DNA of 64,000 nucleotides from an uncultured delta proteobacterium (GTDB taxonomy: Bacteria > Desulfobacterota > Binatia > UBA9968). Positions 8,777-57,891 of the stretch are shown piece after piece. The translations under genes and the position numbers were made by a program. The DNA is taken from assembly GCA_963816145.1 (NCBI GenBank), contig CAWFJP010000004.1, forward strand, positions 512,001 through 576,000. The letters are read 5' to 3'. The stretch's first letter is position 1. The number at the start of each line of letters is the position of its first letter. The notes below the pieces were generated by a model that did no database searches, was not told the DNA's origin, and was given only the letters and a program-made list of their open reading frames with translations.

Positions 8777-10056
8777 ATGATTTCGCGCGAGGAAAACCAA
8801 CTGCTAACTCAAACCGGCGCCGGCACGCCGTGCGGCGAGTTGCTGCGCCGCTACTGGCAGCCGGTGGCGTTATCGGAGGAGTTGAAAGCTGACGAGGCGC
8901 CTTTAGCTGTGACCTTGATGGGCGAAGAATTGGCGATTTTCCGCGACGACAAGGGGCGCGTCGGCGTGCTCGATGCACATTGCTGCCATCGCGGCGCTGA
9001 TTTGACTTACGGTCGCTTAGAGGATGGCGGTCTGCGCTGCATTTACCACGGCTGGTTGTACGACATTAAAGGTAGAATCCTCGAACAACCCGGAGAGCCC
9101 AATGGCGGCGAAAACCGCGATGCGTTTTGCCAGCCGTCGTTTCCGTGTCAGGAATCCGGCGGGGTGATCTTCGCCTATATCGGACCGGGGAGCCGCCGCT
9201 GTTGCCCAACTACGAGTTTCTCCAAGTGCCGGATGACCACCGCTTCGTTTCCAAGATTCATCACTCGTGCAACTACCTGCAGTCCAACGAAGGCAACATC
9301 GATCCGGTGCATCTGTCGTTTTTACATCGCAAGCTGGAGTTGACCGAACTCGACAAGCAACGGCGCGTCACCGGCAGCGAAAGTTCGCCGAATGCTTTAT
9401 TCGGCGCCGATCTGGCGCCGCGCATCGAGTTGGAGCTCACCGATTTCGGCGTGCGAATTTTCACCGTGCGCGATATCGAAGACGAAAAGATTTATTTTCG
9501 CACCTCCAACTTCATCATGCCCAACTTTAGCACCTTCCCCGGGCAAACGGCGGCGGAAGGATATTCGGTCAACTGGCATGTGCCCATCGACGATTACAAT
9601 CACTGGAAATTCGTCATAGTTTTCAGCCGCAAGCGGGCGTTGGTACGCGAAATGATGTTGCGCGGGCGCGACGAATTGACCGCCGACTATCATATGGTAC
9701 GCAACAAGGCGAATCGTTATCTGCAAGACCGCGAGTCGATGAAGAACAAATCGTTCAGCGGTATCGGACATAATTTTCAGGCCCAGGATGCTTGTGTGAT
9801 CGAAGGCGCCGGCGCGATTCAAAATCGTACTAAAGAACATCTGGTGACCTCGGATAAAGCCATCGTCGCGGCGCGCAAGTTGTTGCTCAAGGGGATTCAG
9901 GACGTAAAAGAGGGCCGCGATCCGTTGCATGTCATCCGCGATCCCAAGGCTAACCATTTTTCGCATCTGGCAGTGATCTCCGAGGTGACGCCGAAGGCGG
10001 CGGATATTCGGGCTATCGTGCAGGAAAAGATTAGGCAGCAGAGCGCGATGAGTTAA
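8777..10056 (+). CDS. Rieske non-heme iron oxygenase alpha subunit (Pht3/OphA2/LigXa-like), frameshift near 9190
   Basis: CCHRG..CIYHGW Rieske motif; EGNIDPVHLSFLH and QD mononuclear-iron motifs in the 9127 frame; close paralog of 56626. Confidence 0.9.
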
Positions 10057-20187: not shown

Positions 20188-20263
20188 AGCGCTGAGGGAC
20201 AATTGAGAATGGATAATGGAGAATTGATAATGCTCGGGCGCTGGCAATCTGAAGGGACTCATA

Positions 20264-21701
20264 ATGGGAAGTGAAAGTTCACTAGCTTACAAAGACCTGC
20301 GCGGTTATCTCGACGCGGCTGACAAGCTCGGCGAACTGCGTCGGGTTAACGGCGCGGATTGGGATCTGGAGCTCGGCGCGATTACCGAAGTGGCGGCGCG
20401 GGCGACGCATCCGAAAGTGGTTCTGTTCGACGACATCAAGGGCTATCCGACGGGGTTTCGCGTCGTTACCAATCCGGTTTGTTCGGCGGCCACGACGGCG
20501 CTCGCTTTCGGACTCGATCCGAAGTTGACCGGTATGGATATTATTCGCGCCTGGAAAGAGCGGCTCGGCAAGCAGACGCCGATCAGGCCCGTGGAAGTTG
20601 GCAACGGGCCGATTACCGAGAACTGCGACAGCGGCGACCAGGTCGATTTGCTCAAGTTCCCGACGCCGCGTTGGCATGAAGAAGACGGCGGTCGTTATAT
20701 CGGCACCGGCTGCATGGTGATCATGGAAGATCCCGACGGCAAGTGGACCAACGTCGGCACTTACCGTGTCTGTGTGCATGACAAGAACACGCTCGGCATC
20801 TGGATTTCGCCGGGCAAGCATGGACGGCTGATCCGGGAAAAATATTGGGCCCAGGGCAAACCCTGTCCGGTGGTGATTAGTTTCGGCCAAGATCCGATTC
20901 TCGCCAAAGTGGCGAGTTGGTACGAAGCCTGGGGTGTGTCGGAGTTGGAAATTGCCGGCTGGCTGTTCGGCGCGCCGGTTAAATATATTCACGGCAAGGA
21001 AACCGGTCTGCCGATTCCCGCGACTTCCGAGCTTAGCCATCGAAGGTTTCATCGTGCCGCCGACCGAAGACAGCCGGCCGGAAGGTCCGTTCGGCGAATG
21101 GACCGGCTACTACGCTTCGGGCACGCGCAACGAGCCGGTGGTCAAAGTCAAAAATGTTTTTTACCGCAACGATCCGATCATCTTCGGCATGCCGCCGGGC
21201 ATCTCCGGCAAATCGGTGCCGCTGAGCGCCGCTAACGTGTGGCTCGCCCTCGAAAAAGCCGGCGTCACCGACGTCCAGGGCGTGTGGGAATATCAGACGC
21301 GCTACATCACGGCGATCTCGATCAAACAAAAATACGGCGGCCACGCCAAGCGCACGGCGATGGCGATGTTAGGCTCGACCTACGGCTACCACCGGCGTTT
21401 CGTCATTATCGTCGATGACGATGTCGATCCATCGAACATCGACGATGTTATGTGGGCCCTGGCCACCCGCTGCGATCCGGCGACGGCGATCAATGTCATC
21501 ACCGACGCCTGGAGCACACCGCTCGACCCGCGCATCACGCCCGACGCCCGGGCGGCGCGCAACTTCACCAATTCGGTCGCGATCATCAACGCCTGCCAGC
21601 CGTACCATTGGAAAGATCAATATGCCAAGACTTGCTACTTTCCTGAGGAAACGCGGCGGGCGGCGGCGGCGAAGTGGAAGGACGTGCTGAAATTGGACTG
21701 A
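20264..21701 (+). CDS. UbiD-family (de)carboxylase (frameshift near 21035)
   Basis: DGGRYIGT and NVGTYR in the first frame; EGPFGEWTGYY in the 20934 frame. Confidence 0.88.
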
Positions 21702-30727: not shown

Positions 30728-30813
30728 AAATTATCTTGTCGCAGCTGCGCCGAATTTTACTGGCCCCTCGCTGGGGGAAGGCAAGGATGGGGGGTGCTGC
30801 GCGCGATATTGGT

Positions 30814-30988
30814 CTAGTGTCCCGACCCAGAAGTTCACTGCATAATGCAACCGTCATTCCGGGCAAGCTGGCGATAGCTGGCGCGACCCGGAATCCAGAA
30901 GACTCGCGAATCTGGATGCCGGCTTTCGCCGGCATGACGATGTGAAGGCATCCGGCTCATTTTGCAAACTTCCGGCCCAGGACACTAG
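30814..30988. mobile_element. IS630-like-ended MITE carrying a CGTC-REP pair, inserted in the spacer of a CCCC..GGGG element (30763-31029)
   Basis: CTAGTGTCCCGACCCAGAAGTT ... AACTTCCGGCCCAGGACACTAG; REPs at 30852-30939. Confidence 0.75.
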
Positions 30989-31106
30989 CTGGGTACCCCA
31001 CCTTTATTATCCCCCGTCGACGGGGAGGAAAGAAGATTCACAGTGCGGCGAGCGTTTTTAGTCGTTCGAAAATTTTTAGCGTGCAGTAATCAGGAGGAAG
31101 TTTTTA

Positions 31107-37203: not shown

Positions 37204-37223
37204 AGGCTAAATCAGGACCGTCA

Positions 37224-37492
37224 TTCACTACGAAGTGTCCATGAGCTTACGCTCGTCTACAGAGCATGAAATTGCAGGCCCCTGCACCCCCCCGGTTCGT
37301 CATGCCGGCGCAGGCCGGCATCCAGGGGACGGAGGGGGGATGGATACCGGCTTTCGCCGGTATGACGGAAGCCTTATGCCAATTCGTCGGCCAGATCGTA
37401 CTTGCGCATGTATTTTCTCAGAAGGACACGAAGAGCACGAAGTTCGGAACCTTAAACATCCGAACCCTTCGCGGCCTTCGTGAGCTTCGTGG
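37224..37492. repeat. ACCACGAAG element interrupted by an about 190-bp insert containing a CGTC-REP pair
   Basis: TTCACTACGAA-GTGTCC ... GGACAC-GAAGAGCACGAAG ... CTTCGCGGCCTTCGTGAGCTTCGTGG; REPs at 37298-37367. Confidence 0.7.
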
Positions 37493-37550
37493 CGCGGTGG
37501 ATTTTCTCATGGCCCGCGACTAATGCAGCCAATTTGATGGGACCAAAACG

Positions 37551-38423
37551 ATGAAAACATATAATTCGACGGCTCCCTTGGAGCGCGTGGGATTTATCGG
37601 CCTCGGCAACATGGGCGGCGCCATCGCGCTGCGATTGCTGCGCGCCGGTTATCCACTGACGATTTTAGACTTGGACGCGGAAAAGATGGCGGGTCTCATT
37701 AACGAAGGCGCGACGCGCGCTGCCACGCCGCGAGAAGTGGCCGAGCGTTGCACCATCGTCCTCGCGTCGCTGCAACCGGACGACGTCGAGAAAGTTGCCT
37801 GCGGCACCGACGGCATTGCTCAAAGTAAAAACAAGAGTGTTGTTTTTGTCGATCTCAGCAGCACGACCGAGCAGACGGCGATCAAAGTTGCCGATTCGTT
37901 GCGTGCGTGCGGCATCGAAATGCTCGACTCTCCGGTGAGCGGCGCGGACATCGGCGCGACCAACGGCCATCTGACGCTCTTTGTCGGCGGCAGTTATCAA
38001 GCCTATCAGCGCTGTCTGCCGGTGCTGCAACAGGTCGGGCGGATGGTTACCTATCTCGGTAAGAACGGCAACGGCCAGGTGGGTAAGAAAATCAATCAGA
38101 TGATGCAGGCGCTGTCTGAGCTGGCGATCTACGAAGGCATGTTGCTGGCGCAAAAAGCCGGTTTGCCGCTGCGGAGTTTTGCTCGTGCGGCGTCGGCCGG
38201 CTGTGCTCAGACTTGGCGCTTGGATGAGATGGTCAACGATGTTTTCAACCAGGGTGTGCGCCAACACCGCTTCAGGCTTCGTCCGGGCCGCACGGGCAAC
38301 GCGCTGAAGATGGCCGCGCGGCTGGGTGTCAAACTGCCCGGCACGGAAGCCGCCCACGAGCTGTTTTCGCGCCACGATTGGGAAATCGTGATCGATTTTG
38401 ACGATGACAAAGTTCCTGAGTAG
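37551..38423 (+). CDS. NAD(P)-dependent oxidoreductase, 3-hydroxyisobutyrate dehydrogenase family
   Basis: GFIGLGNMG, DSPVSG and G.GQVGKKINQ motifs. Confidence 0.9.
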   Translation: MKTYNSTAPLERVGFIGLGNMGGAIALRLLRAGYPLTILDLDAEKMAGLINEGATRAATPREVAERCTIVLASLQPDDVEKVACGTDGIAQSKNKSVVFVDLSSTTEQTAIKVADSLRACGIEMLDSPVSGADIGATNGHLTLFVGGSYQAYQRCLPVLQQVGRMVTYLGKNGNGQVGKKINQMMQALSELAIYEGMLLAQKAGLPLRSFARAASAGCAQTWRLDEMVNDVFNQGVRQHRFRLRPGRTGNALKMAARLGVKLPGTEAAHELFSRHDWEIVIDFDDDKVPE

Positions 38424-55001: not shown

Positions 55002-55929
55002 ATGCAAAAACTCACTTTGGCCTACCGGGATGACGATCGCACCCCGGTGATCTTCGCCATTCGCGAGATGGCCCGGCGCCATTACGGTCTCATGGTGAAG
55101 ATCGTCCGCATCAAGGGTGGCGACGCCTACGAAGCGGCGCTTTTCAACGGTGCCGCGGATATCATCATCGAACATCTCGAATATCTTTACGACGAAGCGG
55201 TCAAGGGCAAGAAGGTGCTGATTTTCTGCGCGCCGAGCAAAGGCGGCGGGCTCGATCTGGTGGTGCGGCCAGAGGTTCGGAGTGTGGAAGAGTTGCGCGG
55301 TCAGACCATGGCCGTCCGTTCCCATGGCCAACCGCACGCGGTGACGTTGTGGCTGCGCATGCTGGGATTGGAAAAAGATGTCGCCACCTTGATCGTCCAC
55401 GACAAGGATGTCGGCCGCTGGGGCCAGTGGAAGAAAGTCGTCAGCGGCGAGTGCGTTGCCACCTTCATGTCGCCTTTGTACTTGCCCGAAGCATTGAATG
55501 CCGGGTTGAAAAGTCCTTGAGGTTCCCGACATTCCCATCGTCGGCCAATTCGCCCAGGCTTGCCTGGCCGAATTCGGCCGAAAGAATGACGCCGTGATGC
55601 GCGCCTATGTGCAGTCGGTCCTGCACGCGTTGGTTTGGCTGACCCATCGTCCCGGAGAAGCCCTGGCTACGCTGGCGCCAGAGCTGAAAGCCTGCATGGA
55701 AATCGCCGATGACAGCGAGCTCAAACGCCGCTTCGATGCGGTAGTCACCGGCTTAAAAATCCGTCCCTATCCGACGCTGCAAGCGATCGCCAACACCTAC
55801 GAGATTGCCGTCATGGAGTACCCCGACGCGAAAGGGTTGAATCCGCTGTCGCTGTGGGATTTGCATTGGGTGAAGGATCTCGATGATGGCGGTTTTATCG
55901 ATGGACTAGTTCGGCAGCTGTCGGCGTAA
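55002..55929 (+). CDS. NMT1/SsuA-fold protein lacking a signal peptide (frameshift near 55515)
   Basis: ORFs 55002 and 55594 join; ends PYPT..AIAN.Y...PLSLWDLHW..LDDGGFID like 25842. Confidence 0.78.
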
Positions 55930-55944
55930 TCCGAGTCCCAATTC

Positions 55945-56026
55945 CGTCATTCCGGTGAAAACCGGAATCCAGGTTCGTTTTCCGTTCAAAGGCAAAGACT
56001 GGACACCGGCTTTCGCCGGTGTGACG
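55945..56026. repeat. CGTC-REP inverted doublet upstream of the GIY-YIG gene
   Basis: CGTCATTCCGGTGAAAACCGGAATCCAG ... CTGGACACCGGCTTTCGCCGGTGTGACG. Confidence 0.9.
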
Positions 56027-56116
56027 ATGGGATGCGGGACTCTGGGATTTTTTCTTACACTGCCGGGATTTGTCAATTCCCTCGGATCGAAATAGTATGG
56101 CTACGGTGTTCGACCA

Positions 56117-56400
56117 GTGAAGCAACCCTGCGTTTACATTTTGGCAAGTAGACGCAATGGAACTTTGTATGCGGGTGTGACATCCGATTTGATGCAGCGG
56201 ATTTGGCAGCACAGGAACGACCAGGTTGAAGGATTTACGAAGCGCTACGGTGCACAAATTAGTCTGGTATGAAATCTGCGGTCAATGGAGTTGCAATTGC
56301 GCGCGAAAAAGCGATCAAGGAATGGAAACGGACTTGGAAGATCGAGCTGATTGAAAAAGCAAATCCCGAGTGGCGCGACTTGTATGCTGAACTGCTTTGA
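56117..56400 (+). pseudogene. Small GIY-YIG nuclease (YhbQ/UPF0213-like), frameshifted (not in ORF track)
   Basis: MKQPCVYILASRRNGTLYAGVTSDLMQRIWQHRNDQVEGFTKRYG / HKLVWYE / AIAREKAIKEWKRTWKIELIEKANPEWRDLYAELL*, with small deletions at about 56250-56295. Confidence 0.88.
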
Positions 56401-56401
56401 G

Positions 56402-56589
56402 TGGACACCGGCTTTCGCCGGTGTGACGAAGAAGGGACCGATGTTAGGTGTCGGGGTGCTGAATGTCAGGATGCCGACGCAGCTAGGCCACACCGTCCGT
56501 CATTCCGGCGCAGGCCGGAATCCAGGTTGGGTGCGGGGGCGTGGCGAATTAGACGCAGAAGATGGACACCGGCTTCCGCCGGTGTGACG
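56402..56589. repeat. Three CGTC-REP units downstream of the GIY-YIG gene
   Basis: TGGACACCGGCTTTCGCCGGTGTGACG directly after the stop; doublet at 56498-56589. Confidence 0.9.
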
Positions 56590-56625: not shown

Positions 56626-57891
56626 ATGATTGCCGCTGAAGAAAACCAGCTTTTAACCCAAACCGATCGCGGAACTCCATGCGGCGAATTGATGCGGCGA
56701 TACTGGCAGCCGGTGGCGTTGAGCGAAGAGCTGCCTGCCGGCGGCGCGCCGCTCAAAGTGAAGATCCTCGGCGAAGAGCTGGCGTTGTTCCGCGACGATC
56801 AGGGGCGGCCCGGTTTGATCGGCCTGCACTGCTCGCACCGCGGCACCGACTTGAGCTATGGCCGGGTCGAGGACGGCGGGCTGCGCTGCCTCTATCATGG
56901 CTGGCTCTACGATATTTGCGGCCGGGTGATCGATCAACCGGGCGAGCCCGGCGGCGGCGCCAACAAGGCGGCGATTCGGCATCCGGCTTATCCCTGTCAG
57001 GAAGTCGGCGGAATCATTCTCGCCTACATGGGACCGGGCGAGCCGCCGCTCGTGCCCAATTATGAATTCCTCAAAGTCGCGCCGGAATATCGCACGGTGG
57101 TCAAAGTGATGTACGAGTGCAACTATTTGCAGGGCAACGAAGGCAACATCGATCCGGTGCACTTATCGTTCCTGCATCAAATTTTAGATGAGGCGCAGAT
57201 CGCCCGCCGGCGCGTCGTCCAAGCCGTCAACGCGTCGGATAATACGTTGCTCGCCAAAGACGTGGCGCCGACCATCGAGGTCGCGGTGATGAACTTCGGT
57301 CTGCGAATTTCTACCCTGCGCGATGCCAGCGCCGACAAGCGCTATCTGCGCACGACCAATTTTATCATGCCCAATCTGGCGGCCTTTGGCGGCTCGACGG
57401 TGGGCGAGGGCTATGCGGTGCACTGGCATGTGCCGATCGACGATCACCATCACTGGAAATATATCTTTGCCTTTAGCCGCAGCGGTCCTTTGGATGAGTT
57501 CTTGCGCACGCGCAGCCGCGCTGAATTGACCGCCGATTACCGCCTGACCAAAAATGCCGCGAACCGTTACCAACAGGACCGCGCGTCGATGCAGACTCAG
57601 ACTTTCACCGGCCTGGGCACCAACTTTCAAGTGCACGACGCCTTCGCCACCGAGAGCCAGGGACCGGTGCAGAATCGCACGGAAGAAAATCTTGTCTCGT
57701 CGGACAAAGCGATCGTGGCGGCGCGCAAACTGATCTTGAACGGCATCAAAGACGTGCGGGAAGGCCGCGATCCGCAGCATGTGGTACGCGATCCCAAAGC
57801 CAATGCTTTTCCCAACTTGGTGGTAATCTCCGATGTGATCGCGAAATCGATGGATTGGAAAGAGTACACGCGGAGCAGGGAAGTTAAATAG
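56626..57891 (+). CDS. Rieske oxygenase alpha subunit (Pht3/OphA2-like)
   Basis: CSHRG..CLYHGW and EGNIDPVHLSFLH motifs. Confidence 0.93.
   Translation: MIAAEENQLLTQTDRGTPCGELMRRYWQPVALSEELPAGGAPLKVKILGEELALFRDDQGRPGLIGLHCSHRGTDLSYGRVEDGGLRCLYHGWLYDICGRVIDQPGEPGGGANKAAIRHPAYPCQEVGGIILAYMGPGEPPLVPNYEFLKVAPEYRTVVKVMYECNYLQGNEGNIDPVHLSFLHQILDEAQIARRRVVQAVNASDNTLLAKDVAPTIEVAVMNFGLRISTLRDASADKRYLRTTNFIMPNLAAFGGSTVGEGYAVHWHVPIDDHHHWKYIFAFSRSGPLDEFLRTRSRAELTADYRLTKNAANRYQQDRASMQTQTFTGLGTNFQVHDAFATESQGPVQNRTEENLVSSDKAIVAARKLILNGIKDVREGRDPQHVVRDPKANAFPNLVVISDVIAKSMDWKEYTRSREVK

Follow-up and report, generated by a model that had tools for sequence, protein, structure and literature searches.

What is a small, broken nuclease gene doing amid five hairpins of a repeat family that is dispersed through its host's genome? 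The question is raised by a window of 64,000 nucleotides (the whole stretch of DNA analyzed here) from an uncultured delta proteobacterium, whose genome (G000) is available as a 7.8-Mb assembly in 31 contigs. Two familiar systems offered themselves as models. RAYTs are HUH Y1 transposases whose genes are flanked by doublets of GTAG REP units (REPtrons), and Slx1-like nucleases, which cut branched DNA, combine a GIY-YIG domain with a further C-terminal domain. The original prediction drew on both, describing the locus as a RAYT/REP-like system with a different enzyme and as the master locus of a REP family propagated by a structure-specific GIY-YIG nuclease.

The cassette occupies the spacer between a frameshifted NMT1-like gene, which ends at 55929, and a Rieske oxygenase gene that starts near 56626. 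Within this spacer lies a broken ssn-type GIY-YIG nuclease gene on the forward strand (56117..56400), which is 284 nt long where 288 nt would be expected, is divided among three forward reading frames (56117-56272, about 56252-56290, and 56269-56400), and ends with a TGA stop at 56398-56400. A putative sigma-70-like promoter, TTGTCA-17-TAGTAT at 56070..56098 (+), is located 19 nt upstream of the GTG start; it is a consensus match only, agreeing at 9 of 12 positions. The N-terminal 51-aa frame matches the Pfam GIY-YIG model (PF01541) with an E-value of 7.7e-8, and in an intact orthologue the match extends over positions 2-77 of the 78 in the model (residues 4-77, E 2.6e-17). The orthologue protein is one 95-aa GIY-YIG domain, and the absence of a second Pfam domain rules out an Slx1-like identity. 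Residues Y7, Y18, and E65 are invariant across eight homologues (alignment A1), and the tail motif to which the original prediction had pointed, W.R.WK..LIE..NP.W.DL, is present, with its W, R, K, L, N, P, W, and D invariant in eight homologues. A search of NCBIfam returned no model specific to this type of GIY-YIG protein, and PADLOC gave only weak partial matches to it (14.6-17.1 bits). The sole match returned by a PDB sequence search, to WD40, was dismissed as spurious.

The gene on the 5' side of the cassette is named NMT1-like solely for its resemblance to NMT1 genes nearby, and Pfam yielded no match for it at E 1e-5. It is split into ORFs at 55002-55520 and 55594-55929 by one extra A within an A-run near 55511-55514, and its orthologue in G009 is a single 308-aa frame. 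Either a real lesion or a homopolymer error in the assembly could account for this frameshift. Elsewhere in the window, two genes (20231-21232 and 9076-10053) appear truncated when judged by Pfam coverage: one, a UbiD-like ORF, ends at profile position 151 of 206 and is missing its C-terminal domain, and the other has a LigXa_C domain and no Rieske domain.

A family of GIY-YIG nucleases that is paired with hairpins has been described by Chenal et al. (Nat Commun 2025, PMC11893778). In the parts of that article on which we draw, the Ssn family is counted separately from Slx1 within the GIY-YIG nucleases and is paired with NTS/SRM hairpins, the Neisseria NTS having the consensus CGTCATTCCCGCGMAVGCGGGAATCYRG and the SRM being its degenerate form. 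SsnA of Neisseria meningitidis, a 94-aa protein assigned to cd10448, binds the NTS as single-stranded DNA only and cuts it a few nucleotides upstream; it is inactive on RNA, and its cleavage activity is abolished by Y6A, Y17A, and E64A. Cleavage of the NTS is governed by the three bases before the palindrome, and binding by the C after it. Among ssnA homologues, 71% are SRM-flanked and 42% have an SRM on both sides. SsnA reduces transformation by NTS-bearing DNA, and restriction of incoming ssDNA in Neisseria is the sole function demonstrated in these parts of the article. The Discussion likens NTS-ssnA-NTS to an insertion sequence, IS200/IS605, RAYT, and REP/BIME, and propagation of the repeats by an Ssn nuclease is offered in the article as a hypothesis. 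This work supersedes two elements of the original prediction: the statement that no experimental characterization was known, and the expectation of Slx1-like cutting of branched DNA, since Ssn cuts hairpin-bearing single-stranded DNA. When the literature was searched for GIY-YIG together with SsnA or Ssn, Chenal et al. was the only work found on the Ssn family. Nothing relevant came from pairing GIY-YIG with 'repetitive extragenic palindromic' or with REPIN; judged by titles and abstract openings, the papers found with REPIN deal with restriction enzymes. A term search of the RepRanger paper (PMC12306157) found mention of neither Ssn nor GIY-YIG.

The hairpins have a literature of their own. 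According to the sections of Di Nocera 2013 (Di Nocera, De Gregorio, and Rocco, BMC Genomics, PMC3733652) used here, CGTC REPs have 8-bp stems and 4-nt loops, occur mostly as HH dimers, and include dRS3 of Neisseria. They 'apparently lack a dedicated transposase', and it is considered plausible that many REPs undergo transcription and work as RNA elements.

We searched the window with the pattern CGTCAYNCCGG-loop-CCGGNRT and observed 8 matches, where 0.01 would be expected. Five are at the cassette locus, at 55945(+), 56003(-), 56405(-), 56498(+), and 56566(-), and three are at two gene-free sites, at 30916-, 37298+, and 37344-. Upstream of the gene is a convergent (HH) doublet at 55945-56026, ATTCCGG(+)/ACACCGG(-). 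Its outer unit is an SRM or CGTC-1 REP hairpin with the stem ATTCCGG (55945..55972, +), for which the ssDNA fold has an energy of -7.8 kcal/mol, and its inner unit is an SRM hairpin with the stem ACACCGG (55999..56026, -) that lies 90 nt before the start codon. Downstream, an SRM hairpin with the stem ACACCGG (56401..56428, -) begins one base past the TGA stop, and beyond it is a second doublet (56498-56589) composed of an outer ATTCCGG unit (56498..56525, +) and an SRM-like ACACCGG unit with the loop GGAA (56562..56589, -). The published SRM pattern matches four of the five local units (55945, 55999, 56401, and 56498), and the fifth is one loop base off that degenerate pattern. Folded as ssDNA, all five units give 8-bp stems closed by 4-nt loops, with energies from -7.8 to -10.1 kcal/mol and z values from -3.0 to -5.4. 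The predicted anatomy, a small GIY-YIG gene flanked by five REP units with one of them right after its stop, is thus what the locus contains. Terminator-like sites were not found at the cassette locus, and an Rfam search with the local hairpins gave microRNA-hairpin matches below threshold only, no family reaching threshold.

Recurrence of the family at gene-free positions had likewise been noted, and both sites were recovered by the three pattern matches together with one arm recognized by eye. The first (30852..30939) is a convergent doublet of an ATTCCGG arm with a 23-nt loop, which is the arm that fell outside the pattern search, and an ATGCCGG arm. Hairpins have been gained or lost between congeners at this position: G019, G004, G007, and G023 lack the doublet in their orthologous intergenic spacers. 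The spacer (window 30761-31087) measures 327-363 bp here versus 66-125 bp, hairpin-free, in those four genomes. In G002 the orthologous spacer carries another hairpin (..ATCATTCCGAGGCGAAGCCGAGGAATC..), and therefore different lineages filled the same spacer independently. The second gene-free site (37298..37367) is an ATGCCGG/ATACCGG convergent doublet of the 68-nt family described below, and it sits within a composite-repeat insertion of ~350 bp (window 37204-37578); the genes that flank this insertion have a stop/start overlap (ATGA) in G002. The N-terminus of the downstream gene differs here from that in G002. The window also holds, at 37421-37492, a 72-nt inverted-repeat element (CACGAAG..GCACGAAG ... 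CTTCGTG..GCTTCGTG) that is unrelated to the CGTC hairpins and recurs many times, at identities of 83-92%, in G007, G019, G023, and G002.

For the genome as a whole, a scan for perfect 7-bp stems directly following GTC revealed 334 units of the CGTC hairpin family in 213 clusters, and in 107 of these clusters two units 20-40 bp apart converge, their CGTC tags lying outermost. The tag is CGTC in 242 and TGTC in 60 of 302 family units. The published SRM pattern matches the genome 320 times, compared with the 16-63 matches expected from three Markov-1 simulations. By family count, the repeat load of this genome is the highest among the 41 genomes searched (204 pattern matches). The commonest stem is ATGCCGG (135 copies), followed by ATTCCGG (76), ATACCGG (62), ATTCCCG (24), ATACCGT (11), ACCCCGG (9), ATACCCG (8), and ACACCGG (3); all three genome copies of the ACACCGG variant are located in the cassette. 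Other GTC-headed hairpins, with the arms CTCCCCC (13), CCCCTTT (7), and CTCTCCC (4), may be a separate repeat family. Among 321 units collected irrespective of pairing at the two variable stem positions, 312 proved to be Watson-Crick at both, with six pair types. The covariation of stems that the original prediction had noted is therefore real and genome-wide, although much of it can be put down to amplification of subfamilies instead of recurrent compensatory change. Of 112 convergent doublets, all but one join two different stem variants and are thus heterodimers. ATGCCGG/ATTCCGG doublets (50) are mostly 86 nt long with a median pairwise identity of 73%, and ATACCGG/ATGCCGG doublets (34) are mostly 68 nt long with a median pairwise identity of 93%; ACCCCGG/ATACCGT occurs 8 times, and the 2 doublets of the type ATTCCGG/ACACCGG are both at the cassette.

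The gene in the window, as assembled, cannot make the enzyme. In an alignment with seven intact orthologues (A2), it has one 2-nt deletion at 56249..56250 (+; columns 134-135) and another at 56281..56287 (+; columns 168-169, the exact site being ambiguous by a few bases), and these account for its shortened length. The suggestion that this copy might be inactivated thus holds for the assembly. Two points raise the possibility that the gene is broken in the assembly only. Wetland-metagenome contigs from one public run, which are ~98% identical over 56209-56404, have extra letters at both deletion sites, two of them at the first, and the neighboring gene has its homopolymer frameshift. The extra letters also mean that intact, near-identical copies of the gene exist in nature. 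None of four public runs provided a contig matching the window across both deletion sites, and in runs X2, X3, and X5 parts of the GIY-YIG gene are without cover. The assembly, for its part, contains 79 open frames of at least 1000 aa, and most of the 55 window ORFs scanned give full-length domain matches; two lesions in 284 nt exceed the level of assembly error that these long ORFs and full-length domains imply. We consider it probable that the gene is a real and recent pseudogene.

The cassette is conserved among relatives of its host. A DNA search of 40 relatives for the cassette neighborhood identified an intact orthologue (95 aa) in seven congeners (G021, G018, G007, G015, G002, G012, and G006), and the orthologue is broken in three genomes (G019, G022, and the window genome). 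The intact orthologues are under purifying selection. Their variable columns number 37, 22, and 84 of 95 by codon position, dN is 0.08-0.19, and dN/dS lies at 0.06-0.08 in those pairs, 4 of 21, whose dS is unsaturated (NG86); since dS was saturated in the other 17 pairs, we give dN/dS for these four together with the codon-position counts. In each of the ten genomes, the gene has units of the ATTCCGG(+)/ACACCGG(-) doublet on at least one of its sides. Five relatives have a complete doublet on both sides, G018 and G006 have a lone ACACCGG(-) unit directly after the stop, and the window locus has such a lone unit 3' of the gene plus the additional doublet. Across the 41 genomes, 17 of the 22 matches to the ACACCGG variant are inside the cassette, and the matches occur in every orthologue-bearing genome plus one each in G003 and G009. 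In G023 and G014 the same two genes are separated by a spacer of ~90 bp from which the cassette is wholly absent, with no hairpin remaining, and in G009 a 361-aa ORF occupies the cassette site.

Repeat copy number tends to be higher where the gene is present, a correlation that the original prediction had proposed to check. The median family count is 57.5 in congeners with the orthologue (n=10) and 11 in those without it (n=14), a difference with a one-sided Mann-Whitney p of 0.003 among kin that are not independent; this comparison leaves out G005 (unpublished) and includes MAGs with a completeness of 60-100%. G003 and G010, in which no window-type orthologue was seen in the searches made, have 60 and 41 repeat matches, respectively.

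The association of gene and hairpins also extends across phyla. A profile built from eight homologues was used to gather the 80 closest loci from MAGs and isolates. The encoded proteins have identities of 62-82%, and the loci carry labels that include Proteobacteria, Dehalococcoidia, Chloroflexota, Planctomycetota, NC10, Nitrospirae, and Elusimicrobia; identities of this order across phyla suggest horizontal spread. We observed that these window-type Ssn proteins (L033-L112) are far more alike across phyla than vertical descent would give, examples coming from Dehalococcoidia, Planctomycetota, Betaproteobacteria, and NC10. With the published pattern, an SRM is found within 200 bp of the gene at 68 of the 80 loci (upstream at 53, downstream at 59, and on both sides at 44), and SRMs number 4.7 per kb close to the gene versus 0.23 per kb farther away, a 20-fold difference. 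The palindromes anticipated in the flanks of homologues are thus present at most of these loci. In the layout seen most often, a + unit precedes the start by ~40 nt and a - unit follows the stop at a distance of 4-50 nt.

Paralogous clades in congeners each have their own hairpin class: the hairpins of one clade equal the Neisseria NTS consensus, those of a second read TGTCATTTCGA...GAGAAATC, and those of a third read TGTCATCCTGAGC...GAAGGATC. The sole intact Ssn-like paralogue in the window's own genome is a 97-aa protein encoded on another contig (C3:188155-188448; L001:1486-1779) that has 45% identity to the window-type orthologues. It is surrounded by hairpins of the forms GTCATCCC...GGGATC (95 copies) and GTCATTTC...GAAATC (169 copies), which often form convergent mixed doublets and are both missed by the published SRM pattern.

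Given these observations, the local hairpins are at once CGTC-1 REPs and Ssn-related motifs (SRM), and the locus is very probably a decayed cassette of the Ssn type, with the gene amid its cognate SRM hairpins. The assignment of the protein to the Ssn family is made from its Pfam match, size, residue positions, and shared hairpins, and is put forward as a likely one. By analogy with the biochemistry of SsnA in Chenal et al. (2025), the intact enzyme would be a 95-aa single-domain GIY-YIG nuclease, site-specific for single-stranded DNA, which would bind the hairpin of the strand reading CGTCA-stem-loop-stem-TCC and hydrolyze that same strand on the 5' side of its CGTC tag, at a distance of a few nucleotides, leaving double-stranded DNA and RNA untouched. 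The ~330 family copies, mostly convergent heterodimer doublets, would be its dispersed targets, and the intact paralogue on the other contig is tied to different hairpin classes.

Could the neighborhood have arisen by chance, with a dying GIY-YIG gene in a long spacer that gathered REPs? Repeats are plentiful in this genome, with their 213 clusters, and other spacers independently acquired different hairpins, but a chance neighborhood is contradicted by the same flanking arrangement in 10 congeners, by the hairpins at 68 of 80 distant loci and their 20-fold enrichment beside the gene, and by the near-confinement of the ACACCGG variant to the cassette; we give it negligible probability. It is exceedingly improbable that an HUH tyrosine transposase of the RAYT type, encoded elsewhere in the genome, is the enzyme to which the repeats belong, with the GIY-YIG gene as a bystander. 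The genome does contain nine Pfam Y1_Tnp matches, yet none of them is flanked by family units, the nearest unit to any of the nine being at least ~1.5 kb away, and the tag is CGTC rather than GTAG, which rules out a REPtron identity; in addition, the sections of Di Nocera 2013 (PMC3733652) used here report no CGTC-flanked tyrosine transposase gene. A third possibility is that the hairpins are chiefly RNA elements (terminators, mRNA stabilizers, or gene regulators), to which the link with the nuclease would be secondary. One unit abuts a stop codon, and transcribed REPs are considered plausible in the same sections of PMC3733652. However, the locus yielded neither terminator-like sites nor an Rfam family at threshold, the doublets occur in both orientations, and SsnA is inactive on RNA in the parts of PMC11893778 cited above, so that this reading is very unlikely.

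Evidence on both sides bears on whether the nuclease also mobilizes the repeats, as a RAYT does for REPINs, the cassette being autonomous and the dispersed doublets non-autonomous. In favor of such a role, 10 congeners have the entire cassette and the ~90-bp spacers of G023 and G014 are free of it and of hairpins, orthologous spacers differ in whether they carry a gene-free doublet, and doublet families have fixed lengths, the 68-nt family with its 93% median pairwise identity among them. Further support comes from the higher family counts with the orthologue (57.5 versus 11), from the 62-82% identity of proteins across phyla, and from the double doublets, which place hairpins of the same strand and orientation around the gene in the manner of IS200/IS605 ends. 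On the other hand, GIY-YIG enzymes hydrolyze DNA and are not known to form a covalent intermediate, and therefore rejoining would need host functions. The searches of the Ssn, GIY-YIG, and REPIN literature found no report of transposition, the cassette's own ACACCGG hairpin is unamplified (17 of its 22 copies in 41 genomes being in the cassette), the top repeat load of 204 matches coincides with a broken gene, and G003 and G010 have their 60 and 41 matches with no window-type orthologue seen. We consider a mobilizing role doubtful. The more specific claim that this is the master locus fits poorly: ATTCCGG/ACACCGG doublets are confined to the cassette, the doublet types that abound in the genome are different ones, and the gene itself is broken. 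What stands of the proposed RAYT/REP-like system is a real and conserved association of gene and repeats; the association itself, and the analogy with RAYT and REP, were already in print. The strands of evidence might also be joined in one reading of an autonomous cassette in this genus, which is possible but unlikely. Two same-oriented hairpins would bracket the gene on each strand, and Ssn cuts 5' of each hairpin could release a single-stranded copy of the gene plus a hairpin. The dispersed heterodimer doublets would be non-autonomous derivatives, ACACCGG would serve as an end or operator variant to which the enzyme binds and which escapes amplification, and the nuclease would have been lost after the largest repeat burst, that of the present genome.

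Since the pairing of Ssn with SRM is already published (Chenal et al. 2025), the locus is a further member of this group and adds a member, not a principle. Its value is comparative. Inside one genus, a single chromosomal site has the cassette intact, broken, or absent, repeat loads vary about a hundred-fold (2 to 204 matches), and the nucleases form three or more coexisting clades with a separate hairpin class for each. It is therefore testable here whether Ssn spreads CGTC REPs or merely uses them, and the co-evolution of hairpin and specificity is therefore testable as well. If the unlikely reading of an autonomous cassette were true, the genus would provide a natural experiment on the spread of CGTC REPs, a question open since 2013. 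Ssn enzymes are also of practical interest as site-specific cutters of single-stranded DNA, and the ATTCCGG/ACACCGG pair beside one gene is a ready comparison of specificity.

Compared with known systems, the locus resembles a REPtron or REPIN (RAYT) system in that a single small gene is bracketed by doublets of the genome's dispersed palindromes, in that the doublet resembles the replicating unit, and in that the enzyme would recognize its hairpin as single-stranded DNA. It differs in having a GIY-YIG enzyme of hydrolytic chemistry in place of a covalent HUH tyrosine, CGTC tags in place of GTAG, and a mobilization that is hypothetical. With the CGTC-1 REPs of PMC3733652, as described in the sections used here, the units share the CGTC/TGTC tag, the 8-bp stem, the 4-nt loop, A-T at the first stem positions, their occurrence mostly as HH dimers with the tags outside, and the absence of a flanked tyrosine transposase; the differences are that a GIY-YIG gene is the partner, both here and in Chenal et al., and that ACACCGG breaks the A-T rule at the second stem position. 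The closest comparison is with Ssn of Neisseria. The local units differ from the NTS consensus only within the stem, whose core is CCGG here and CCCGCG there. The flanking units are doublets here and single units there, ACACCGG is hardly found outside the cassette, and the assembly, 31 contigs from an uncultured host, contains the gene in broken form. The likeness to SsnA is nevertheless extensive. Both are single-domain GIY-YIG proteins of 94-95 aa, and Y7, Y18, and E65 of the orthologue are one residue off Y6, Y17, and E64 of SsnA, a match by position only. In both systems, oriented CGTCA-stem-loop-stem-TCCAG hairpins stand on both sides of the gene, genome copies number in the hundreds, and different nuclease clades are each accompanied by a different hairpin variant.
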